From Lachnospiraceae bacterium (lineage in GTDB: Bacteria; Bacillota; Clostridia; Lachnospirales; Lachnospiraceae), in assembly GCA_028696165.1 (NCBI GenBank), contig JAQVHQ010000011.1:1866-65865 (forward strand): a DNA stretch of 64,000 nt, read 5' to 3'. Shown here in pieces: positions 5,012 through 54,893 of the stretch; the first letter of the stretch is position 1; each line of letters begins with the position of its first letter. The notes beneath the pieces were generated by a model. The model did not search any database. It saw only the letters and a program-made list of their open reading frames with translations, and was not told the origin of the DNA. The position numbers and the translations under genes are program-made.

Positions 5012-5021
5012 GTTCAAAGAA

Positions 5022-5176
5022 ACACGCTAGGGGCGCTTTTAGCTGAGATTGTTAGATAAATTAACAGACCCTCATTACTTGAACCGGATAATACCGGCGT
5101 AAGGAAGCTTATTGATAAAATATCCATTATCAAAAAGTCAAAGCACCCTCCACGTGAAAACGAAGGAGGTTTTTTT
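5022..5176 (+). promoter_or_regulatory. TPP (thi-box) riboswitch with terminator/RBS-sequestering hairpin
   Basis: CTAGGGGCGC...GCTGAGA...ACCCTCATTACTTGAACCGGATAATACCGGCGTAAGGAAGC matches thi-box core; expression platform CCTCC(5147-5151)/GGAGG(5165-5169) plus T7 run directly before ATG 5177. Confidence 0.85.
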
Positions 5177-5842
5177 ATGTTTTCATTTCTTGTTAACGTA
5201 GACGGCGGATTGACCACAGCCGGTTATGCCGTATCCATCATCGCAGCCATCGTGCTGCTGCTTGCTGCATGTTTTCTTGCAGGCAAGGTATCTAATTCTA
5301 AAAAGATGAGTGCCAAACAGATTACTTTCTGTGCGGTTGCCCTGGCACTGGCATTTGTCACTTCTTATCTGAAAATTTTCCCGCTTCCTTTTGGCGGCAG
5401 TGTGACTTTATTCAGCATGCTGTTTATCGTACTGATTGGTTACTGGTATGGGATTAAAGTTGGTATTCTTACCGGTTTTGCTTATGGTATCCTGCAGTTT
5501 GTCCAGGAACCCTATGTACTATCACTGTTCCAGGTATGCTGTGATTACCTTTTGGCATTTGCTGCACTGGGATTATCCGGACTCTTTACTAAGTCTAAAA
5601 ATGGACTTTTGAAAGGATATCTTGTGGCGATTTTTGCCCGCGGGTTCTTCCATGCTTTAGGCGGCTACCTGTACTGGATGTCCTATATGCCGGAGAACTT
5701 CCCAAAATCGCTGACTGCTGTATATCCTATCGTTTACAATTACAGCTATATCCTGGCAGAAGGAGTTATAACCATTATTGTCATCAGTATACCTGCAGTT
5801 AAGAAAGCATTGGAACAGGTAAAACAGACTGCACTTAGTTAA
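5177..5842 (+). CDS. thiT: thiamine transporter, ECF S-component ThiT-like
   Basis: 221-aa polytopic membrane ORF directly behind TPP riboswitch; GGSVTLFSML motif resembles ThiT/YuaJ family. Confidence 0.7.
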   Translation: MFSFLVNVDGGLTTAGYAVSIIAAIVLLLAACFLAGKVSNSKKMSAKQITFCAVALALAFVTSYLKIFPLPFGGSVTLFSMLFIVLIGYWYGIKVGILTGFAYGILQFVQEPYVLSLFQVCCDYLLAFAALGLSGLFTKSKNGLLKGYLVAIFARGFFHALGGYLYWMSYMPENFPKSLTAVYPIVYNYSYILAEGVITIIVISIPAVKKALEQVKQTALS

Positions 5843-6157: not shown

Positions 6158-7333
6158 ATGAATCAGGAAAGGTATGGTAAACACATGACTACAAACGAAA
6201 AAGCATTACAACTCCATGAAGAATGGAATGGGAAATTAGATACTACTTCCAAGGCTCCAATTAAAAGCCGCGAAGATCTGGCATTAGCTTACACTCCAGG
6301 AGTTGCAGAACCCTGTAAAGTAATCGCCAAAGATCCGAAAGCAGCATATAAATACACAATAAAGTCCAACACAGTAGCTGTTGTCTCTGACGGAAGCGCA
6401 GTTCTTGGGCTTGGCAACATCGGTCCGCTGGCTGCTATGCCTGTTATGGAAGGAAAAGCAGTACTCTTTAAAGAACTTGGCGGAGTAAATGCATTCCCTA
6501 TCTGTCTGGACACTCAGGATACCGAAGAAATCATCAAGACCGTTGTCAACATCGCCCCGGCATTTGGCGGTATCAACCTGGAAGATATCTCCGCTCCCCG
6601 CTGCTTTGAAATTGAAAGCCGTCTGAAAGAGCTTCTGGATATCCCGGTATTTCATGATGACCAGCATGGAACTGCTATCGTAGTATTAGCAGGAACTATC
6701 AATGCTATGAAGGTCACAGGACGCACAAAGGAAAATTGCCGTGTTGTAGTAAATGGTGCCGGTTCTGCCGGAATCGCCATCACGAAACTTCTGCTTACCT
6801 ATGGTTTTAAAAATGTTATCATGTGTGATAAATCAGGCATTTTAAATAAAAAATCTGCTGACTTAACATGGATGCAGAAGGAAATGATGGATGTCACTAA
6901 CTTAGCTCAGGAAGAAGGCACTCTTGCCGATGCACTGGTAAATACAGACATCTTCGTAGGTGTTTCCGCTCCTGGTATCGTAACTGCTGATATGGTAAAA
7001 ACCATGGCGAAAGATGCTATTATCTTTGCAATGGCCAATCCGGTACCTGAAATCATGCCTGATGTTGCCCGCGAAGCCGGAGCTGCTGTGGTTGGAACCG
7101 GACGTTCTGATTTTCCAAATCAGGTCAATAATGTTATGGCATTCCCTGGCATCTTTAAGGGTGCTTTAGAAGGTCGCGCAAAGCAGATTACAGAAGATAT
7201 GAAGCTGGCAGCTGCACTGGCCATCGCTTCCCTTGTACCGGAAGAAGAATTATCCACAGAAAATGTAATGCCAGCTGCACTGGATCCACGTCTTCGTGAT
7301 ACCGTTGCACAGGCTGTAAAGGATTTGATCTAA
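6158..7333 (+). CDS. NAD(P)-dependent malic enzyme (oxaloacetate-decarboxylating malate dehydrogenase)
   Basis: 391-aa ORF; LALAYTPGVA, VVSDGSAVLGLGNIG, FHDDQHGTA, VVNGAGSAG motifs of short bacterial malic enzymes; true start may be ATG 6185. Confidence 0.88.
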   Translation: MNQERYGKHMTTNEKALQLHEEWNGKLDTTSKAPIKSREDLALAYTPGVAEPCKVIAKDPKAAYKYTIKSNTVAVVSDGSAVLGLGNIGPLAAMPVMEGKAVLFKELGGVNAFPICLDTQDTEEIIKTVVNIAPAFGGINLEDISAPRCFEIESRLKELLDIPVFHDDQHGTAIVVLAGTINAMKVTGRTKENCRVVVNGAGSAGIAITKLLLTYGFKNVIMCDKSGILNKKSADLTWMQKEMMDVTNLAQEEGTLADALVNTDIFVGVSAPGIVTADMVKTMAKDAIIFAMANPVPEIMPDVAREAGAAVVGTGRSDFPNQVNNVMAFPGIFKGALEGRAKQITEDMKLAAALAIASLVPEEELSTENVMPAALDPRLRDTVAQAVKDLI

Positions 7334-10278: not shown

Positions 10279-10426
10279 AATTTCTCCCTTACCAAAACTA
10301 CAATATAACAATAAAATCATATGTAACCATTCTCATGATAAGCTCATACATAATATAAACTTTCATCCAACTTCCACTCTATCTTACAACGAAACAAACG
10401 TTCGCACAAGCATTTTCTAATATTAA

Positions 10427-10795
10427 CCCCCATACTCCCTCAATCCCCGTGCCATTAAAATGGCACGCGCCCTCACTGCCACCCACAATCCAAGCCCCTA
10501 ACCCCCATGCTCCCTCAACCCCCGTGCCATCAAAATGGCACGCGCCCTCACTGCCACCCACAATCCAAGCCCCTAACCTCCATACTCCCTCAACCCCGTG
10601 CCAAAATGGCACGTGCCCTCACTGCCACCCACAATCCAAGCCTCTAACCCCCATACTCCCTCAACCCCCGTGCCATCAAAATGGCACGCGCCCTCACTGC
10701 CACCCACAATCCAAGCCCCTAACCCCCATACCACCTCAACCCCCGTGCCATCAAAATGGCACGTGCCCTCACTGCCACCCACACAACCTCCCTCA
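10427..10795. repeat. 75-bp tandem repeat, 4 full plus 1 partial unit, C-rich on + strand, each with an internal 8-bp hairpin
   Basis: units at 10427, 10502, 10577 (71 bp), 10648, 10723; unit CCCCCATACTCCCTCAACCCCCGTGCCATCAAAATGGCACGCGCCCTCACTGCCACCCACAATCCAAGCCCCTAA. Confidence 0.95.
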
Positions 10796-10828
10796 ACCAC
10801 CACAACCCCGCCTCCAGCCCGAACCCAG

Positions 10829-11107
10829 CCAGCCAGAAAGCCTTACTAAGTAGCAAAACAGGCGGTGTTTATGGATATCAGAATCAGCTGATGAGTATCT
10901 TAGTGCGAAGGCACCCAAGTTTATGGGACGAAATGGTGCTTACAAAGCACCATTTCGAAGGCATCCTGAGGCAGGTATGCATCAGCATACCTGCCGAATA
11001 TGCCTGATTCCCATAAACTTGGGTGCCTTCACACTTAGATACTCACAGCGCAATGACCTATCCATAAACACCGCCTGCTTTGCTACTTAGTAAGGCTTTC
11101 TGGCTGG
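10829..11107. ncRNA. unclassified ornate structured element, family copy 1 of 3 (strand unresolved)
   Basis: 49-bp outer helix with one mismatch, GCTG/CAGC mini-helix, 35-bp second helix, two inner hairpins, invariant GTATGCATCAGCATAC at 10975-10990; same architecture at 21170 and 52907. Confidence 0.55.
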
Positions 11108-11122
11108 CGTCCCTCCCCCCAT

Positions 11123-12487: not shown

Positions 12488-12768
12488 ATTAATTGATTAC
12501 CTTCTTTGTTTCCCTTTCTTTCCTTATCCCATTTTCTATTTTCATGGAATCCTATCCTGCCAGTAAATTCAAGTACGCATTGGCATACGTATATTATAAT
12601 AGCAGTCTTTTGTAAATCCCCCATTACATTATTGTTAAATCCATGAAAAATCCCCTGAAACATCAAGTCTCAGGGGTCTCTTACGTAGTATATGAAAGTG
12701 CATCTGCACTCTCTCACAAAATCCGTTTAACAAATCCTGTGTATACAATATATCAATACAGTTAAAAA

Positions 12769-13904: not shown

Positions 13905-14048
13905 ATAAATTAAGAAATTAAAAATAGGTAGATAGTCAGACTATCCACCTAGTATATGTTTAAGATTTCTCTTATAATCATTACTTTATTAACCCGAGTC
14001 GCTTTGTGCGCTAAGGTGAGAGTGGATACTCTACTTTCTTTACCGAAC
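13905..14048 (-). promoter_or_regulatory. infC-rpmI-rplT leader, probable L20-type autoregulatory leader with attenuator hairpin
   Basis: about 145-nt leader between promoter and infC RBS; attenuator AGGTGGATAG-TCTGA-CTATCTACCT plus ATTTTTA at 13918-13950 (minus sense); position matches Firmicute L20 leaders. Confidence 0.5.
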
Positions 14049-14084: not shown

Positions 14085-14122
14085 GGGGTGATTTTAAAAA
14101 TATTTTTTTTCCAAGGCGGACG

Positions 14123-14303
14123 CAGCGGTTCCATACGGGCGAAAGTTGCGGAACGTGGGCAACGCCAGGGTGAACTATCTGTTAACTTCGACTAAGACGC
14201 TCGGGAACGCCCTCGCGCCTAAGTCTTCGTAAACAGAGGATTTCACCCTGGCTAAGAGCGCCCACTGAATTGTTCCGCGACTTTCGCCCGTATGGAACCG
14301 CTG
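14123..14303. other. 181-nt nested imperfect palindrome (possible structured RNA, + sense favoured)
   Basis: outer arms CAGCGGTTCCATACGGGCGAAAGTTGCGGAAC / GTTCCGCGACTTTCGCCCGTATGGAACCGCTG (32 bp, one T.G), inner arms GTGGGC..GCCAGGGTGAA / TTCACCCTGGC..GCCCAC. Confidence 0.5.
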
Positions 14304-14413
14304 CTGATTTTGGTTGGGACTTTATTTTTTTCTTTCCTTTGTGGTTATATTTAACGGTTATATTTATTGCTTATTTCCTTATTGCTCTTATATTTTACAA
14401 TTTTTCGTTATAT

Positions 14414-14478
14414 TTATTCTTTACGCCTATTCTTTACGCCTATTCTTTATATCTATTCTTTATATCTATTCTTTATAT
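14414..14478. repeat. 13-bp tandem repeat x5 (CTATTCTTTACGC / CTATTCTTTATAT) in T-rich leader region
   Basis: direct reading of consecutive 13-mers. Confidence 0.9.
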
Positions 14479-14629
14479 TTTATTATTTTTATTTTTTACA
14501 GTTGTATTTTTTGAATGGTATGTGGGGGTACTTTTTTTATCTGATATATGGTATACTGATAGTCTCTGGTATGGTTTTATTTTTACTTGTGTGCAGAGAT
14601 TAACTTTTTTTATTTTTAGGAGGATTATT

Positions 14630-15352
14630 ATGAAGAGAACTTTTTTAGTGCGATATATGGTACTTCCGCTGTGTATATCTGCTTTGTTATTTGGTGGATG
14701 TGGCAATGTTGAGGACGGTAAGAAGGATGATACTGCTGTAGTTGCGGAGAATACGGATAAAACTACGGATGGCGGGAAAGACGATACAAAGGATGATTCT
14801 ACATCAAACAGTGAGACGAAGGCTGAAGAAAAGAAAGATGTTCCTTCTAATTCTGATTTGAATCTGGAAGAGACGAATCCGGATGTTTTGACTATGGGAG
14901 AAGGAAGTAACATCACTGAAGTGGGGGAAAAGATTGATGGCAGTACTGCTTCTGTTCATAAGGTTGGCGATGTGATTTCTTTTGAGAAGGACGAAGTTGT
15001 TCAATATACTCTTACGATTAATTCCATTGCTGTTACTGACCGCAGAAATGATTATGCAGATACAAATCCGGAGAAGGTTGTTTTGATTGATTATACTTAT
15101 AAAAATGTTGCTTATGAAAGCGAAGTTTTTTTAGATAATATGAGTTTTAAACTGGCTGACACTGCGGGTGGTGCCTGCCTGTATTATGCTATTGGTTCTG
15201 ATAAGCAGGCGCTTCCGGTTGCAGTTGGTGCTGATTGTAATATGGAAATTGCTTATGGAGTGAGTGCTTCAGATACAAAAGTAACCTTATACTATACTGA
15301 TTTGTTCTGTGGTAGTAATGAGATGGTTGCTGTAGAAGCTGATTTGAAGTAG
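14630..15352 (+). CDS. putative lipoprotein, function unknown
   Basis: AGGAGG RBS 6 nt upstream; MKRTFLVRYMVLPLCISALLFGGCGN lipobox; Asp/Thr/Lys-rich linker then beta-rich domain. The 14270 start in the ORF track is read-through of the repeat region. Confidence 0.75.
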   Translation: MKRTFLVRYMVLPLCISALLFGGCGNVEDGKKDDTAVVAENTDKTTDGGKDDTKDDSTSNSETKAEEKKDVPSNSDLNLEETNPDVLTMGEGSNITEVGEKIDGSTASVHKVGDVISFEKDEVVQYTLTINSIAVTDRRNDYADTNPEKVVLIDYTYKNVAYESEVFLDNMSFKLADTAGGACLYYAIGSDKQALPVAVGADCNMEIAYGVSASDTKVTLYYTDLFCGSNEMVAVEADLK

Positions 15353-18378: not shown

Positions 18379-18406
18379 GGCACTTTTCGCAGTATTTCCC
18401 AATGGG

Positions 18407-18497
18407 ATTTCTCACGGGTATTTCTCATGGGTATTTTTCATGTACATTTCTCATGCACATTTCTCGCACACATTTCTTGCACATGTTTCTCACGCAC
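18407..18497. repeat. 13-bp tandem repeat x7 (ATTTCTCAYGNRY)
   Basis: ATTTCTCACGGGT ATTTCTCATGGGT ATTTTTCATGTAC ATTTCTCATGCAC ATTTCTCGCACAC ATTTCTTGCACAT GTTTCTCACGCAC, abutting the HD gene stop codon. Confidence 0.9.
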
Positions 18498-18498
18498 A

Positions 18499-19251
18499 TT
18501 ATTTGTAAAAAAGTATGTTACGAATATTTTCCAGAATTTCTATGGTACTAGAATTATCTGATTTAAAACATGCCAATTTCCACATATACCCCTGTTCCAT
18601 TACCATCATCTGGCTTTCCGGATATACAAGTCCGAAAAATAAGGATAAGTGTCCTATCAAATGATCCACCGGTGTCTTCTTCAAACTTCTAAGAACCGTA
18701 TGCCCTTCCAAAAAAGCCTCATACACAGCTGGCGTTACAGATGCCTGTTTTAATTCCTCTGATGTCACATTATATATGTTCTCCATCCCCGTCTCATAAT
18801 TAGCCCGAAAGATATCTATCTTATCCGCATCGCGAATAACCTGAGCAAACAATTTTTCTCTGTTATTCAAATTTACAGGAATCTCATAGCGATTATGACA
18901 GCGTATCGCCATTTCCATCAATTCGTATTTAGAGGTATCCGGTTCAAACCATTCAATCAGGCCCTCTTTAAAAAGAAGATCCGCGCCAAATTCCGCATGG
19001 TCAATCGATTCTGAATCCATAAAAGTATCATATCTTTTCAGCTGTTCGAACCGTCCAATATCATGCAGCATCCCGATCTCCCAGTTTAACTCACAATCAT
19101 CCCCGGAAAGCTTCAGCGACCTTGCAATTCTAGCTGCATTTTCTGCAACTTTCTTTGTATGAATATATTTCAATTGTATCTTAGCATCAGACAAATCATA
19201 CGCCGCAGTATAACTATCAAATGCCTGTTCCACATGCCCTCTTGTATCCAT
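18499..19251 (-). CDS. HD domain-containing phosphohydrolase
   Basis: H..(LHDIGR)..DHAEFGA..RDADKID metal-binding pattern; start at MDTRGH (19251) preceded by GGAGGAAGA. Confidence 0.75.
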   Translation of the reverse strand: MDTRGHVEQAFDSYTAAYDLSDAKIQLKYIHTKKVAENAARIARSLKLSGDDCELNWEIGMLHDIGRFEQLKRYDTFMDSESIDHAEFGADLLFKEGLIEWFEPDTSKYELMEMAIRCHNRYEIPVNLNNREKLFAQVIRDADKIDIFRANYETGMENIYNVTSEELKQASVTPAVYEAFLEGHTVLRSLKKTPVDHLIGHLSLFFGLVYPESQMMVMEQGYMWKLACFKSDNSSTIEILENIRNILFYK

Positions 19252-19327
19252 TCTTCCTCCATCTTGACATAGGAGCAATCAACATAAACAATACGAACAG
19301 TCGAAATCTGCCTCGTTGCTTTTGCTA

Positions 19328-19432
19328 CTACTACTTTTATATCTACTACTTTTATATCTACTACTTTTACTCCTGTTGCTTTTACTCTTGTTGCTTTTAC
19401 TCTTGTTGCTTTTACTCTTGTTGCTTTTTCAC
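19328..19432. repeat. 15-bp tandem repeat x7 (CTACTACTTTTATAT drifting to TTGTTGCTTTTACTC)
   Basis: seven consecutive 15-mers read directly. Confidence 0.9.
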
Positions 19433-19689: not shown

Positions 19690-20760
19690 ATGAACTTCCC
19701 ATCCACCACTACGTATCATATTGGATATTTTTTCTTCTACATATGTACTTTTCTCTGGCCTTTACGTATCAAATTAGACAAACTTGCTTCTGTGCACGTA
19801 CTCCCCACCGGCTTTTACGTATCATATTAGACAAACTTGCTTCTGGATACGTACTCCCCGCCGACTTTTACGTATCATTTCGGCATTTCTTACTTCTGAA
19901 TACGTACTTGCATCCTGAATTTACGTGTCATTTCGGGCTTTTTTGCTTCTAGATACGTACCTGCAGCCTGAATTTACGTATCATTTCGGACTTTCTTGCT
20001 TCTGGATACGTACCTGCAGCCTGTATTTACGTGTCATTTCGGACTTTCTTGCTTCTGGATACGTACCTGCAGCCTGTATTTACGTGTCATTTCGGACTTT
20101 CTTGCTTCTGGATACGTACCTGCAGCCTGTATTCACGTGTCATTTCGGACTTTTTTGCTTCTGGATACGTACCTGCATCCTGAATTTACGTATCATTTCG
20201 GACTTTCTTGCTTCTGGATACGTACCTGCAGCCTGAATTTACGTGTCATTTCGGACTTTCTTGCTTCTGGATACGTACCTGCAGCCTGTATTTACGTGTC
20301 ATTTCGGACTTTCTTGCTTCTGGATACGTACCTGCAGCCTGTATTCACGTGTCATTTCGGACTTTTTTGCTTCTGGATACGTACCTGCAGCCTGTATTTA
20401 CGTGTCATTTCGGACTTTCTTGCTTCTGGATACGTACCCGCACCCTGAATTTACGTGTCATTTCGGACTTTCTTGCTTCTGGATACGTACCTGCAGCCTG
20501 TATTCACGTGTCATTTCGGACTTTTTTGCTTCTGGATACGTACCTGCAGCCTGAATTTACGTATCATTTCTATATTTTTTGCTTCTGGATACGTACTCCC
20601 ATCCTGTTTATACGTATCATTTCGACATTTTTCATTTCTGGATACGTACTCCCATCCTGTTTATACGTATCATTTCGACATTTTTCATTTCTGGATACGT
20701 ACCTGCATCCTGAATTTACGTATCATTTCGGACTTTCTTGCTTTTGGATACGTACTCCCA
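19690..20760. repeat. 53-bp satellite, about 20 units, 18 well-phased units from 19796 to 20749
   Basis: unit ACGTACCTGCAGCCTG[T/A]ATT[T/C]ACGT[G/A]TCATTTCGGACTTT[C/T]TTGCTTCTGGAT; degenerate units at both edges. Confidence 0.97.
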
Positions 20761-20937
20761 TTCAATATTCACCTATCAAACAGCCAACTTCCTTATATGT
20801 ACATGCAAGAACAATCTTTTTTCATAGCAATAGCTATACAAACCTTCCAATTCCCACATTCACCCACAAACTCAGCTTTTAACCATCCTACATCCACAGG
20901 CCCCGTGCCCACGGCACGCGATTTTCCACCACAACCT

Positions 20938-21140
20938 AATCCCCTCGCACAACACAAATCCCCCTCTCAACACAATCCTCTTCACAACACAAATCCCCCT
21001 TCACACCGCAATCCCCTTCACACCGCAATCCCCTTCACACCGCAATCCCCTTCACACCGCAATCCCCTTCACACCGCAATCCCCTTCACAACACAATCCC
21101 CTTCACACCGCAATCCCCTTCACAACATATATCCCTCCCC
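20938..21140. repeat. 18-bp C-rich tandem repeat, about 10 units (CACACCGCAATCCCCTTC)
   Basis: five perfect units 21002-21091 flanked by degenerate ones; GGGG every 18 nt on the minus strand. Confidence 0.9.
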
Positions 21141-21169
21141 ACCACCACAGCCAACACCGTCCATCCCAT

Positions 21170-21460
21170 CCGTAAGACTTTACAGCCGGCCAAAAGGATG
21201 GGGAAACTGCTGCTTTTCCCGGTCATAAAATGCGCTGATGAACTTCTTAGGGCGAAAGAGCCGACTACACAGGAATGAAAGGTGTTTACCAAAACACCTT
21301 TCAAAGGCACCCTGAAGGTTGTATGCATCAGCATACAGCCTGAATGTGCCTGGCTTCCTGCGTAGTCGGCTCTTTCACCCTTAGAAGTTCACAGCAAATG
21401 TTCCTGACCGGAAAAAGCAGCAGCTTCCCCATCCTTTTGGCCGGCTGTAAAGTCTTACGG
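21170..21460. ncRNA. unclassified ornate structured element, family copy 2 of 3
   Basis: 35+21-bp outer helix, GCTG/CAGC, 35-bp P2 with T.T and C.A mismatches, hairpin loop TTACCAAA, invariant GTATGCATCAGCATAC at 21321-21336. Confidence 0.55.
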
Positions 21461-21490
21461 ATGAACACACCCCACCTAACCTTCAACCCA

Positions 21491-29389: not shown

Positions 29390-29472
29390 GATTTTTCCTT
29401 TCTAATCGCACAATATTTTATTCAATCACACCCCGGTGCATTATACCCTCAGTTCATCACACATACTAATAA

Positions 29473-29625
29473 CATACAGATACCGATAGCATACACATAC
29501 CGATAGCATACAGATACCGATAGCATACACATACCAATAGCATACAGATACCAATAGCATACACATACCAATAGCATACACATACCAATAGCATACACAT
29601 ACCAATAGCATACACATACTAATAT
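29473..29625. repeat. 17-bp tandem repeat x9 (CATACA[G/C]ATACC[G/A]ATAG) between the GH13 paralogs
   Basis: units phased from 29473; the first six alternate CAG/CAC giving a 34-bp higher-order period. Confidence 0.9.
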
Positions 29626-52520: not shown

Positions 52521-52550
52521 ATTCTATCACACTAAAGTCGAAAGTGTCAA
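52521..52550 (-). promoter_or_regulatory. sigma-A type promoter of the amino-acid ABC operon
   Basis: minus sense TTGACA (52545-52550), 18-nt spacer, TAGAAT (52521-52526). Confidence 0.55.
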
Positions 52551-52605: not shown

Positions 52606-52752
52606 GCAGGAGAAGAGACGGGGGCGGGGCAGAAAACGCGTCGTCCTCCTCAGCTGCCGAAACCCCGGGCATGCGGCTCCCGCCTTTGCCCGGCGGCGAT
52701 CTTCGGACTCCTTTGGCTTGACTTTCTGCCCCGCCCCCGTCTCTTCTCCTGC
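52606..52752. repeat. GC-rich 30-bp perfect inverted repeat with 87-nt GC-rich spacer
   Basis: GCAGGAGAAGAGACGGGGGCGGGGCAGAAA (52606-52635) / TTTCTGCCCCGCCCCCGTCTCTTCTCCTGC (52723-52752); spacer holds the nested hairpin CCGGGC...GCCCGG. Confidence 0.9.
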
Positions 52753-52906
52753 TGTTTGTTGGCGATAACTGGGAAAGGCGAGATAACATTTGTTCCCTGG
52801 TGGGGATGCCCTTTGGGTGGTTGCGGGCGTGACTGTGTGGATTGTCTGTTTTTTATATTCGTGATATGTTGTGTTGATAAATATATGCGTACTTAACAAT
52901 AAGCAG

Positions 52907-53193
52907 CCGTAGCACGAAGAACACCCATCTGACTGCGGAAAAGTCGAGTTTTTATGGATATGGGATGAGCTGATATACATCTTGATGCGAAAGAACCGGT
53001 TACAGCCGGGCGACGGGTATTTACCAAAATACCCGTCGAGGACGCTCTGAGGCGTGTATGCATCAGCATACACACCGAATGCGGCCGCTCCCGGCTGTAA
53101 CCGGTTCTTTCACATCTAGATGTATACAGCAAAATCCCCCTATCCATAAAAACCGACTTTCCCGCAGTCAGATGGGTGTTCTTCGTGTTACGG
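52907..53193. ncRNA. unclassified ornate structured element, family copy 3 of 3
   Basis: about 57-bp outer helix, GCTG/CAGC, 36-bp P2 with T.T and C.A mismatches, hairpin loop TTACCAAA, invariant GTATGCATCAGCATAC at 53056-53071. Confidence 0.55.
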
Positions 53194-53198
53194 CGTCC

Positions 53199-54893
53199 TC
53201 ACTCCACCTTCTCCAATCGCCCCACAACAATCTTCCTAAGCATCTCCACCTTCTCTTCAGCCTCTGCTGCATTCTTCCCCCTGGTATAAATATAAATCTT
53301 AATCTTTGGTTCCGTTCCCGAAGGTCTGACTGCAAACCAGCTTCCATCTTCTAATAGAAACTTCAGTACATTTGAAGGCCCTATATCTTCATATCCGTTA
53401 ATATAATCAATTTCCTTTGCCACCTTAATCCCATCATATTCCATTAATGGATTCTCGCGATAGGAAATCATCATACGTTCAATTCTCTTAGCCCCCTCTA
53501 TTCCATCATAAATCAGTGAAATCTGAGCTTCTTTGTAGTATCCATATTGCCTGTAAATATCTTCCAGCACATCTAACAAACTTTTCCCCATCTTTTTATA
53601 ATATGCCGCAGCTTCACACACCAGCATAGAAGTACTTACTCCATCTTTATCTCTCACAGCTTCACTGGGAGCATAACCGATACTCTCTTCATAGCCAAAT
53701 AAATAACGATATCCTTCCTGTTCCATAACCGGAATTTTTCCACAGATATTTTTAAATCCTGTCAGGGACTCATACATCTTTACTCCATGCTGTTTTGCTA
53801 TTTCTTTTCCCAAATCTCCCGTTACGATAGATTTTACCATTGCTCCATTATCAGGAAGACTTCCCTTGGTCAAAAGTCCTTCTAATATATAGTTAATCAG
53901 CAGTACCCCTGCCTGATTTCCATTAATCGGAACATAGTCTCCCTGCTTATTTCTTACTTCCATAGCAAAACGATCGCTGTCTGGATCGGTTGCAATAAGA
54001 ATATCTGCCGATTTTTCCCCGCCTAATTTTTCAGCATATTTGAATGCTTTTGTATCTTCAGGATTCGGATATCCTACCGTAGGAAAGTCTCCGTCCGGGT
54101 GCTCTTGTTCAGGAACCACAGATACATTAGCAAAGCCTCTTCTTTTTAATATCTTTTGCACAGGTATACTTCCAGCTCCATTTAATGGTGTATAGACAAT
54201 AGACACTGTCTTATCAAGATCTTCTTCTCTTGCCATAGCCAGTCCTTCCACCATTTTCAAATAAGCTTCATCCATTTCTTCGCCTAAGTACTCCAACAGA
54301 TTTTTCTCTGCTGCGCTGTCCAATGATATGCTTTTGATATCCTCAAACATATCGACCTGTGTGATTTCTTCTGTCATCCCATCTGCGATATACTCGGCAA
54401 CCTGTGCGCCGTCTTCCCAATAGACTTTGTACCCGTTATATTCTTTGGGATTATGGCTTGCCGTAATATTAATTCCCGCTGATGCACCTGTTTTTCTTAT
54501 GGCAAATGATAGTTCCGGTGTTGGTCTAAGGGATGGAAACAGGTAGACTTTTATGTTATTTCCAGCAAGAATCTGTGCGGCATACTCTGCAAATTCCCGG
54601 GAATGATGGCGGCTGTCGTATGCTATTACTACGCCTTTATGCATACAGTCTTCGCCCTGCTTTTTCATATAGTCAGCAATGCCCTGGGTAGCTTTTCCAA
54701 CGGTATACCTGTTCATCCGGTTAATTCCAGCTCCCATTTTTCCTCTAAGGCCAGCCGTGCCAAAGGATAAGGGTTTATAGAATCTCTCTTTAATCTCCTG
54801 CTCATCCTGCTTGATGGCAAGTAATTCTTTCTTTGTATCAGCATCCAAATTCTTGTTGTTCAGCCATTCTTCATATATCTTTACTGCATCCAT
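53199..54893 (-). CDS. phosphoglucomutase / phosphomannomutase family protein
   Basis: 564-aa ORF; active-site TASHNPKEYNGYK, metal loop ATDPDSDR, GYEESIG. Confidence 0.92.
   Translation of the reverse strand: MDAVKIYEEWLNNKNLDADTKKELLAIKQDEQEIKERFYKPLSFGTAGLRGKMGAGINRMNRYTVGKATQGIADYMKKQGEDCMHKGVVIAYDSRHHSREFAEYAAQILAGNNIKVYLFPSLRPTPELSFAIRKTGASAGINITASHNPKEYNGYKVYWEDGAQVAEYIADGMTEEITQVDMFEDIKSISLDSAAEKNLLEYLGEEMDEAYLKMVEGLAMAREEDLDKTVSIVYTPLNGAGSIPVQKILKRRGFANVSVVPEQEHPDGDFPTVGYPNPEDTKAFKYAEKLGGEKSADILIATDPDSDRFAMEVRNKQGDYVPINGNQAGVLLINYILEGLLTKGSLPDNGAMVKSIVTGDLGKEIAKQHGVKMYESLTGFKNICGKIPVMEQEGYRYLFGYEESIGYAPSEAVRDKDGVSTSMLVCEAAAYYKKMGKSLLDVLEDIYRQYGYYKEAQISLIYDGIEGAKRIERMMISYRENPLMEYDGIKVAKEIDYINGYEDIGPSNVLKFLLEDGSWFAVRPSGTEPKIKIYIYTRGKNAAEAEEKVEMLRKIVVGRLEKVE

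Follow-up and report, generated by a model that had tools for sequence, protein, structure and literature searches.

A 64,000-nt stretch of DNA from a Lachnospiraceae bacterium (assembly GCA_028696165.1, contig JAQVHQ010000011.1, positions 1,866 to 65,865; the window in what follows) contains three copies of a long, branched hairpin element, the third of which abuts the stop codon of a phosphoglucomutase (PGM) gene. These copies belong to an undescribed family of inserted-hairpin repeats, here called family A, that has so far been found only in a few gut-type Clostridia. Comparison of a filled site with its empty counterparts shows that family A is a dispersed, insertion-derived repeat without evident target duplication, and alignment of its copies reveals a strongly covarying structure under constraint. 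The copies show a strong preference for the first few dozen nucleotides past the stop codon of a co-oriented gene, in positions that close an operon and precede the next promoter, and the element may shape how messenger RNAs end. The interpretation offered by a first-pass annotation of the window is thereby partly supported.

Dispersed palindromic repeats have been well studied in Proteobacteria (REP/REPIN, ERIC and Correia elements) and hardly at all in gut-type Clostridia. The repeats described here are unusual in their size, in the combination of unalignable yet near-perfect outer stems with a conserved branched apex, and in an asymmetric foot that is carried by otherwise unrelated hairpins.

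The hairpin element behind the phosphoglucomutase gene

Along the minus strand, the PGM stop codon TGA (53201-53199) is followed by GGAC, by the 289-nt hairpin of copy 3 (53194 to 52906) and then by the tail TGCTTATTGTT. The stem begins 4 nt past the stop codon, and GGAC alone fills the gap. The predicted fold has a free energy of -220.9 kcal/mol (z = -25.6 relative to shuffles) and consists of a main stem (about 104 bp) that ends at a three-way junction bearing two apical hairpins, P2 and P3 (coordinates of these and other features are collected in Table 1). Features that recur in the main stem of all copies are a CUA(A/G)G/CUAAG box containing an A.A mismatch, a U bulged out before CAGC, and a U.G pair in the helix GUGAAAG/CUUUCGC, with the U.G kept in 7 of 12 aligned copies. 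The PGM protein ends at the same C-terminal position as 40 homologs, arguing that the stop codon is native; the possibility that the element supplies the PGM stop codon was rejected on this ground.

A search of the window with the family profile returned exactly three family-A copies (E = 1e-57 to 1e-62), and the 16-mer from the apex, GTATGCTGATGCATAC, likewise occurs exactly three times. When up to 3 mismatches are allowed, the window has 4 matches to this 16-mer (the three copies and a weak one), compared with 0.56 expected from shuffles. The combination of a long self-pairing hairpin and a repeated apex is far beyond chance. The weak fourth match (12573-12588), which is intergenic, downstream of rplT and upstream of the next gene, was set aside as a chance match. 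The first-pass annotation had placed the three copies just behind stop codons and in the same orientation relative to the upstream gene, and both statements were borne out: the gaps for copies 1, 2 and 3 are 14, 27 and 4 nt, and all three copies lie on the minus strand, co-oriented with the gene that they follow. Copy 2 lacks the GGAC/GC foot described below.

Occurrence in other genomes

A scan of 185,579 species-representative genomes with a pattern built on the apex found copies in two metagenome-assembled genomes: nine loci in 'Clostridia bacterium INTA.CYC.029' (hereafter INTA) and one in 'Lachnospiraceae bacterium STD2_98'. Inspection of the 8-kb blocks around these loci added four further copies, so that at least 14 copies are known beyond the window. 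Three of these four carry one extra nucleotide in the apex loop (GCTTGATGC), and the fourth (locus L001, 761-662) is an internally deleted remnant of 100 nt, which shows birth-and-decay dynamics for the repeat family.

Searches of other collections were negative. Rfam 15 contained no match to family A at E <= 10; blastn against phage and plasmid collections found no match to the element, nor did pattern scans of viral contigs, and pattern scans of metagenomes gave 0 matches. Loci from related Clostridia and Lachnospiraceae, about 120 kb in all, contained no such hairpins. Searches of the literature on REP- and MITE-type elements (MITE, miniature inverted-repeat transposable element) in these bacteria turned up no account of the element, and no paper contains the core 16-mer. 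A probable reason for the empty metagenome scans is provided by contigs of this species from further samples: two of them end inside the apex (L015, 4696-4840; L020, 5696-5836) and three others (L017-L019) end 15-78 nt past the upstream stop codon, as would result if short-read assemblers break at the palindrome. The element interrupts de Bruijn assemblies, with the break at the apex or at the start of an arm; it is therefore systematically under-represented in metagenome contigs, and causes such contigs to end right after genes.

Several known structures were considered and rejected. Readings of the apex, made by eye, as a K-turn, a loop-E motif or a hammerhead-like fold fail because the apex lacks the GA pairs or the CUGAUGA core that these structures require. 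CRISPR, retron msd, SRP, 6S and Y-RNA were rejected because the element is multi-copy, lacks adjacent genes of those systems, and is negative in Rfam.

Placement and orientation relative to genes

All 20 elements, counting those of the related families described below, are intergenic. Of 19 scorable elements from three genomes, a biased sample rather than a census of complete genomes, 13 start 4-65 nt past the stop codon of a co-oriented gene (gaps of 4, 9, 14, 14, 15, 17, 21, 25, 26, 27, 28, 46 and 65 nt), upholding the earlier proposal of a multi-copy, oriented element tied to the 3' ends of genes. At the convergent gene pairs, LeuRS with a P-type ATPase in L003 and a SpoU methylase with a histidine kinase in L010, each gene is followed by an element of its own. 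Tail-to-tail pairs were found at five loci (the window, L001, L003, L009 and L010), with gaps of 87-470 nt, and no head-to-head or tandem pairs were seen among the loci examined.

Almost all genes of the window are on one strand, and the first-pass annotation had concluded that orientation relative to transcription could not be separated from orientation relative to replication. The two are in fact separable, since both orientations occur within 500 bp of each other in the window and at L003, L009 and L010. Orientation therefore follows the adjacent gene and not the direction of replication.

The triplet TAG stands directly before the G-rich leader in 9 of the 19 elements, with TGA, ATG, TTG or AAG in others. 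At L008 and L010, the leader between the stop codon and GGAC carries stop codons in all three frames: the L008 leader (2213-2240) contains three copies of the 7-nt repeat GTAGTGA, and the L010 leader (6967-6984) reads TAAGATAGTGAATAG.

Insertion at new sites

The evidence for insertion comes from an INTA copy at L006, which lies between the gene for the transketolase C subunit (tktC) and an HD-domain gene. In two relatives, represented by GCA_018374355.1 and a group of ENA/Logan contigs, the gene order tal-tktN-tktC-HD is kept without the element, and the spacer between tktC and the HD gene is only 123-126 nt. INTA and the two relatives are roughly equidistant from each other (tktC 89-91% identical, HD gene 81-83%). 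Homology runs through the tktC stop codon and a few bases beyond it, and picks up again at the -35 box in the HD promoter. Between these points INTA has a specific segment of about 314 nt, made up of TTAGGCGGAC, a 285-nt hairpin and TGATTAACAATACTTTGTG. The orthologous empty sites in the relatives show that the element is an insertion, and the location of the foot motifs within the INTA-specific segment shows that the GGAC leader and the TG tail travel with it. At this one site, no direct repeat longer than about 2-4 nt was found at the junctions when L006 was compared with L024, L025 and L027, with the boundaries themselves uncertain by a few nucleotides. The elements also have different host genes in each genome: PGM, deacetylase and fumarase in the window, and elsewhere PhoU, ClpB, transketolase, LeuRS, a P-type ATPase, melibiase, a SpoU methylase and a histidine kinase. 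The family has therefore spread to new sites independently in each lineage.

Other routes to an empty site gave nothing. Outside the species, the closest PGM homologs share only 64% identity and lack synteny; GH4 homologs are 85-92% identical and also not syntenic. The tktC-HD site could not be polarized with the Ruminococcus gauvreauii-like outgroup, which lacks the tal-tkt block, and a search of the available sequences for uninterrupted empty targets of the form GGAC|TG followed by G/T-rich DNA yielded nothing convincing. In the Ruminococcus gauvreauii-like genomes (L030/L031) the HD gene directly follows recR, and the LacI-tal-tktN-tktC block is itself an insertion common to the INTA lineage and the two relatives (L024-L027, L006).

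Structural constraint and polarity

Covariation was assessed in an alignment of 12 full copies from the three genomes, with 86 consensus pairs. At 68 of the 86, pairing is kept through compensatory changes on both sides. Paired cells make up 93.1% of the total, compared with 37-45% when partners are slid by 1-3 columns, and none of 500 shuffles attained the observed pairing values. The apex hairpins (helices 4 and 6) show covariation of their own, and unpaired nucleotides and non-Watson-Crick features are conserved across the three genomes while the stems covary. The outer part of the stem behaves very differently from the apex. Its outermost 55 bp or so are unalignable even within one genome, and all that is conserved there among the copies is 2-3 bp of the stem base together with the non-complementary flanks; each copy is nonetheless nearly perfectly self-complementary. 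The stem ranges from 86 to 162 bp across copies, the longest being that of the STD2_98 copy.

The family has a clear polarity at the level of sequence, with profile scores of 189-238 bits in the sense direction and at most 15 bits in the antisense direction. The folds are less decisive. In the window copies, the sense fold contains 16 G-U pairs and the antisense fold 2; the INTA copies behave otherwise, as discussed below, and the count of G-U versus A-C mismatches does not clearly single out the RNA strand.

A common hairpin foot

The window and the INTA loci were also scanned for the foot of the hairpin, using the pattern 'GAC + arm ... complementary arm + TG'. In these sequences, all long inverted repeats have the boundaries GGAC | GC...GC | TGKTTGTTGG in common. 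The 5' motif GGAC is present in 16-17 of 19 elements, and the stem opens with GC(C) and closes with (G)GC, such that 17 of the 19 are clamped by G-C pairs. In the tail, T is found at position +1 in 16 of 19 elements, G at +2 in 19 of 19 and G at +9 in 17 of 19, with one of the 19 rows (L010+) mis-extracted. A perfect AT-rich palindrome of the INTA genome at L007 (754-837; 39-nt arms, 6-nt spacer) lacks the GGAC/TG foot and is unrelated.

Two of the hairpins defined in this way in the window are not members of family A. The family-B hairpin, which contains several CUAAG/CUAAG motifs with A.A mismatches, is homologous to a hairpin of the INTA genome at L003 (7104-7287), and the GC-rich family-C hairpin sits tail-to-tail with copy 3 on the opposite strand, at a gap of 153 nt. 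Families A, B and C form a superfamily with one foot and interchangeable interiors; superfamily members are 147-424 nt long and those of family A 264-424 nt. Rfam 15 gave no match to family B at E <= 1, and for family C only generic models of miRNA-precursor hairpins, at a fraction of their thresholds.

The surroundings of the family-B hairpin have some features of their own. The hairpin is located just upstream of the promoter of infC-rpmI-rplT, on the other strand, and a promoter-like site ends about 8 nt before its GGAC. An adjoining open reading frame (ORF; 14270-15352, plus strand) has no Pfam or NCBIfam match; its listed TTG start falls inside the 3' arm of the hairpin, and the true start is probably further downstream. 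Upstream of infC-rpmI-rplT there is a ribosomal protein L20 leader (13914-14042, minus strand; 50.9 bits, E = 3.6e-9), just under the Rfam gathering score of 58.7, with a terminator-like hairpin at 13951-13925.

Tails and tandem arrays

According to the first-pass annotation, each copy of the element is followed by a repetitive module rich in G tracts. The arrays are real at copies 1 and 2, with a unit of 17 bp instead of the 18 bp given earlier for the second; they are not a general property, in that the INTA copies are mostly without large repeat arrays and the large G-rich arrays are specific to this genome. The supposed module of copy 3 (52606-52752) is the family-C hairpin, an independent plus-strand member of the superfamily with a G/T-rich tail of its own (52753 to about 52850), which accounts for the C-rich stretch seen in the minus sense. 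What had been described as one module is thus partly the tail of the element, partly genome-specific arrays and partly a second element on the opposite strand. The only general companion of the element is the short 10-nt tail TGKTTGTTGG, and large arrays are not a family feature.

The statement that no U tract follows the outer helices holds only in part. Of the first 8 nt, 6 are U in the consensus tail and 5, 3 and 1 in the tails of copies 3, 1 and 2, respectively. Among the 18 correctly extracted tails, these 8 nt include 5 or more U in 8 tails and 1-4 in the remainder.

The genome is unusually rich in intergenic minisatellites. A 53-bp unit is repeated about 17-20 times (roughly 1 kb, 19761-20755) within the long intergenic region that also houses copy 2 and the 17-bp array, and the plus-strand ORFs listed there are probably artefacts of these repeats. 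Further intergenic arrays are found at 29459-29624 (17-bp unit, 9.8 copies), 14394-14478 (13-bp unit, about 6 copies), 18392-18500 (13-bp unit, about 5-6 copies) and 19315-19428 (15-bp unit). Each unit of the 75-bp array also contains a small hairpin, CGTGCC-N3-8-GGCACG, followed by a G run; this hairpin is found again at about 20904-20918 (minus strand) at the end of the 17-bp array, and it may be a small repeated module.

Table 1. Hairpin elements and associated features of the window (coordinates count from its first nucleotide)
Feature	Coordinates	Strand	Remarks
Family-A copy 1 (281 nt)	10828..11108	-	14 nt past polysaccharide deacetylase stop (11123); E = 1.4e-60
Family-A copy 2 (297 nt)	21167..21463	-	27 nt past fumarate hydratase beta stop (21491); E = 4.2e-57
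Family-A copy 3 (289 nt)	52906..53194	-	defined by fold, boundaries and family profile (E = 4.9e-62)
Copy 3, 5' foot motif GGAC	53195..53198	-	abuts PGM stop TGA (53199-53201); GGAC at -4..-1 in 16-17/19 elements
Copy 3, 3' tail TGCTTATTGTT	52895..52905	-	family consensus TGKTTGTTGG
Copy 3, apex hairpin P2	53040..53088	-	conserved 4x4 internal loop AUUC/UCAG and invariant GTATGCTGATGCATAC (53056-53071)
Copy 3, apex hairpin P3	53012..53037	-	covarying stem, conserved loop UUUGGURA; helix 6, 8/12 pairs changed on both sides
Family-B hairpin (183 nt)	14122..14304	+	foot GGCGGAC|GCAGC...GCTGC|TGATTTTGGTTGG; several CUAAG/CUAAG motifs with A.A mismatch
Family-C hairpin (147 nt, perfect 30-nt arms)	52606..52752	+	foot GGGGGAC|GCAGG...CCTGC|TGTTTGTTGG
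Promoter-like site of downstream solute-binding-protein gene	52521..52550	-	TTGACA-18-TAGAAT, TG-extended; beyond both hairpins
G-rich tandem array, 75-bp unit x 4.9	10424..10783	-	downstream of copy 1; specific to this genome
GGGG-bearing tandem array, 17-bp unit x ~10-11	20930..21135	-	downstream of copy 2

Models for the function and spread of the element

The model that we favor, tentatively and at somewhat less than even likelihood, is that family A is a REP/ERIC-like dispersed hairpin repeat whose copies act as the 3'-end hairpins of messenger RNAs. The element would be transcribed together with the upstream gene and form an RNA hairpin of very high stability. The G-C clamped foot and the immediately following U/G-rich tail (similar to UGUUUGUU) would constitute a non-canonical and probably factor-assisted terminator and also an obstacle to 3'-exonucleases, so that the hairpin would define and stabilize the 3' end of the upstream message and insulate the next promoter. 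Tail-to-tail partners would do likewise for transcription arriving from the other side. The family would have spread by a single-strand DNA mechanism specific for the hairpin foot, in the style of REP/RAYT or IS200/IS605, with the mobilizing enzyme supplied in trans from outside the window.

The resemblance to Rho-independent terminators and to 3' 'retroregulator' stem-loops lies in the sense orientation at operon ends and in a G-C rich foot that is followed at once, in the consensus, by the U-rich tract UGUUUGUU. A terminator scan, restricted to stem-loops with loops of 3-8 nt, found no other convincing terminator-like site between the PGM stop codon (copy 3) or the deacetylase stop codon (copy 1) and the next promoter; the single site that it returned there, a weak hairpin, is internal to the 5' arm of copy 3. 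Canonical terminators are used elsewhere in this genome, for example after rplT, and the stem and loop sizes of the elements are far enough outside the norm that the scanner does not call them. The elements differ in their stem, which has 86-162 bp and a branched apex compared to 5-15 bp in terminators, in a tail that G residues interrupt and that contains little U in half of the copies, in the conserved GGAC on the 5' side, and in their membership in a mobile repeat family of which some copies lie antisense.

Dispersed intergenic repeats of 100-300 nt that form long RNA hairpins when co-transcribed, such as ERIC/IRU, Correia (NEMIS), BOX, RUP and bcr1, offer a second parallel. Elements of this kind can affect messenger RNA processing or stability in an orientation-dependent manner, through RNase III in the case of Correia and RNase E in the case of ERIC. 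They differ from family A in having conserved terminal inverted repeats and, usually, target-site duplications. In family A the stem termini are the least conserved part, the outer stems differ completely from copy to copy and yet are nearly perfectly paired, and there is no duplication at the one site compared. The same two findings, no conserved terminal inverted repeats and no target-site duplication at that site, separate the family from MITEs of the DDE type, among them ERIC, Correia and RUP.

Several observations weigh against the 3'-end model. The near-perfect stem and its three-way junction exceed what termination or stability needs, and such a stem would be a substrate for RNase III. 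Half of the tails are poor in U, with a single U among the first 8 nt in copy 2. For the INTA copies, G-U pairs number 36 in the sense fold and 39 in the antisense fold, G-U and A-C mismatches are about equally common, and the antisense strand folds no worse than the sense strand, with several copies folding better in antisense; a mismatch spectrum of this symmetry is unexpected for a stem selected purely as RNA. The placement rule is broken by six of the 19 elements. These are the family-B and family-C hairpins of the window, the remnant at L001, an antisense element at L005 behind a PFOR gene already equipped with a canonical terminator, an element at L007 in a divergent intergenic region, and an antisense element at L009 between co-directional genes. 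For the proposed mode of spread, no transposase was found among the approximately 40 proteins scanned from the loci and part of the window.

The main rival, a purely selfish origin, which we consider somewhat unlikely, would account well for the shared foot, the missing duplication, the symmetry of the mismatch spectrum and the remnant. In this model the family is a hairpin transposon that moves as single-stranded DNA, either REP/REPIN-RAYT-like or derived from IS200/IS605: an HUH enzyme or another hairpin-binding enzyme would recognize the foot on one DNA strand and move the element without target duplication. The position behind stop codons would reflect tolerated insertion sites or a target such as TAG|, the stems would be kept perfect by palindrome correction at the DNA level and not by selection on RNA, and any effects on messenger RNA would be incidental. 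Insertion without evident target duplication fits this model, as do the unrelated interiors of families A, B and C that share only the foot, the similar frequencies of G-U and A-C mismatches in INTA, the TAG that directly precedes 9 of 19 leaders, the exceptions to the gene-orientation rule, the decayed remnant, and the clustering of elements in pairs. The restriction to a lineage, with none in the 120 kb or so of loci from related genomes, points the same way. Against it, no Y1/HUH or other transposase was among the proteins checked, which cover only part of the window, and the apex is the most conserved part of the element and not the termini. No two copies have outer-stem sequence in common, so that there is no sign of recent transposition. 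Moreover, orientation is linked to the gene even at convergent pairs, which is not predicted by a mechanism that depends on the replication strand. The 3'-end model and a selfish origin are not mutually exclusive, and REP and ERIC elements combine mobility with activity on messenger RNA.

Two groups of known elements offer parallels to such a transposon. REP/BIME and REPIN-RAYT systems of Enterobacteria and Pseudomonas are, like family A, extragenic, multi-copy and lineage-restricted, with hairpins that show compensatory changes in their arms. They are frequent at operon 3' ends and between convergent genes, often as inverted pairs, and they have a tetranucleotide at the hairpin foot: E. coli REPs consist of GTAG followed by a stem starting with GCC, and the foot here reads GGAC-GCC.... 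REPs stabilize upstream messages and, when located within about 15 nt of a stop codon, disturb translation termination. Family A shares with them the extragenic enrichment at 3' ends. A short palindrome with GTAG was not found, which leaves the resemblance in architecture one of analogy, nor were the inverted ends of a REPIN found: the termini here are not inverted copies of each other (GGAC on the 5' side, TGKTTGTTGG on the 3' side). The elements are also ten times longer (264-424 nt, as against 20-40 nt per REP and about 100 nt per REPIN), they have a conserved three-way-junction apex and several unrelated interiors on one foot, and their host belongs to the Lachnospiraceae/Clostridia, with no RAYT among the roughly 40 proteins scanned. 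The other group comprises IS200/IS605 derivatives (PATEs) and HUH elements in general, with which the family shares the lack of evident target duplication, putative hairpin-centered recognition, asymmetric ends and possibly insertion 3' of a short motif, here the TAG that precedes the leader in 9 of 19 copies. It differs from PATEs in being one giant hairpin instead of separate subterminal hairpins, in having no TnpA or TnpB nearby, and in an orientation set by the neighboring gene and not by a single replication strand.

It is also conceivable, though in our judgment quite unlikely, that the element, instead of being a passive 3' hairpin, is a structured RNA that engages a specific partner and works as a regulatory or processing module or as the precursor of a small RNA. 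The apex would then be a binding or processing platform, made up of the AUUC/UCAG internal loop, the GCUGAUGC loop, the UUUGGURA loop, the CUAAG/CUAAG A.A motif and the bulged U. Candidate partners and activities would include a double-stranded-RNA-binding protein or RNase, cleavage by RNase Y at GG|AC ahead of the hairpin, and release of a stable hairpin RNA. The conservation of unpaired and non-Watson-Crick features across three genomes within covarying stems argues for this model, together with the independent covariation of the apex hairpins, the retention of the U.G pair in 7 of 12 copies, the promoter-like site just before the family-B hairpin, and the sense-strand bias of G-U pairs in the window copies. 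That bias is absent from the INTA copies, there is no Rfam relative, and copies without an upstream gene are not consistently preceded by a promoter. Families B and C have the foot and not the apex, and the apex therefore cannot be the common functional core.

A recombination site of the attC type, that is, a folded single-strand site behind each ORF of a gene-cassette system, would explain the co-oriented position right after stop codons, the conservation of structure above sequence, and the bulges and mismatches that distinguish the strands, and it is effectively refuted by the length of family A (attC sites are 57-141 nt), by a foot without RYYYAAC/GTTRRRY core sites, by the absence of cassette arrays and of a nearby integrase among neighbors that are core housekeeping genes and operons, and by the empty-site comparison, in which the element alone was inserted and not a gene together with its site.

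If the foot is the recognition site of an enzyme, the elements point to a new mobilization or processing activity; if the hairpins end transcripts, they represent a new type of terminator or insulator that genes acquire through insertion. There is also a broader proposal, which we regard as unlikely. The foot would define an unrecognized class of bacterial mobile hairpin elements with interchangeable and selectively maintained structured interiors (the three-way junction of A, the CUAAG-rich B and the GC-rich C), placed behind stop codons in the orientation of the gene by a dedicated enzyme. Such a class would amount to a domesticated system of terminator or 3'-end cassettes or, just as well, to a new transposition system in Lachnospiraceae that acts on single-stranded DNA and is specific for the hairpin foot.

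A riboswitch in the window

Apart from the hairpin elements and arrays, the window contains a TPP riboswitch (5019-5122, plus strand; 68.2 bits, above the gathering score) directly upstream of the gene for a ThiT-type thiamine transporter (5177-5842).

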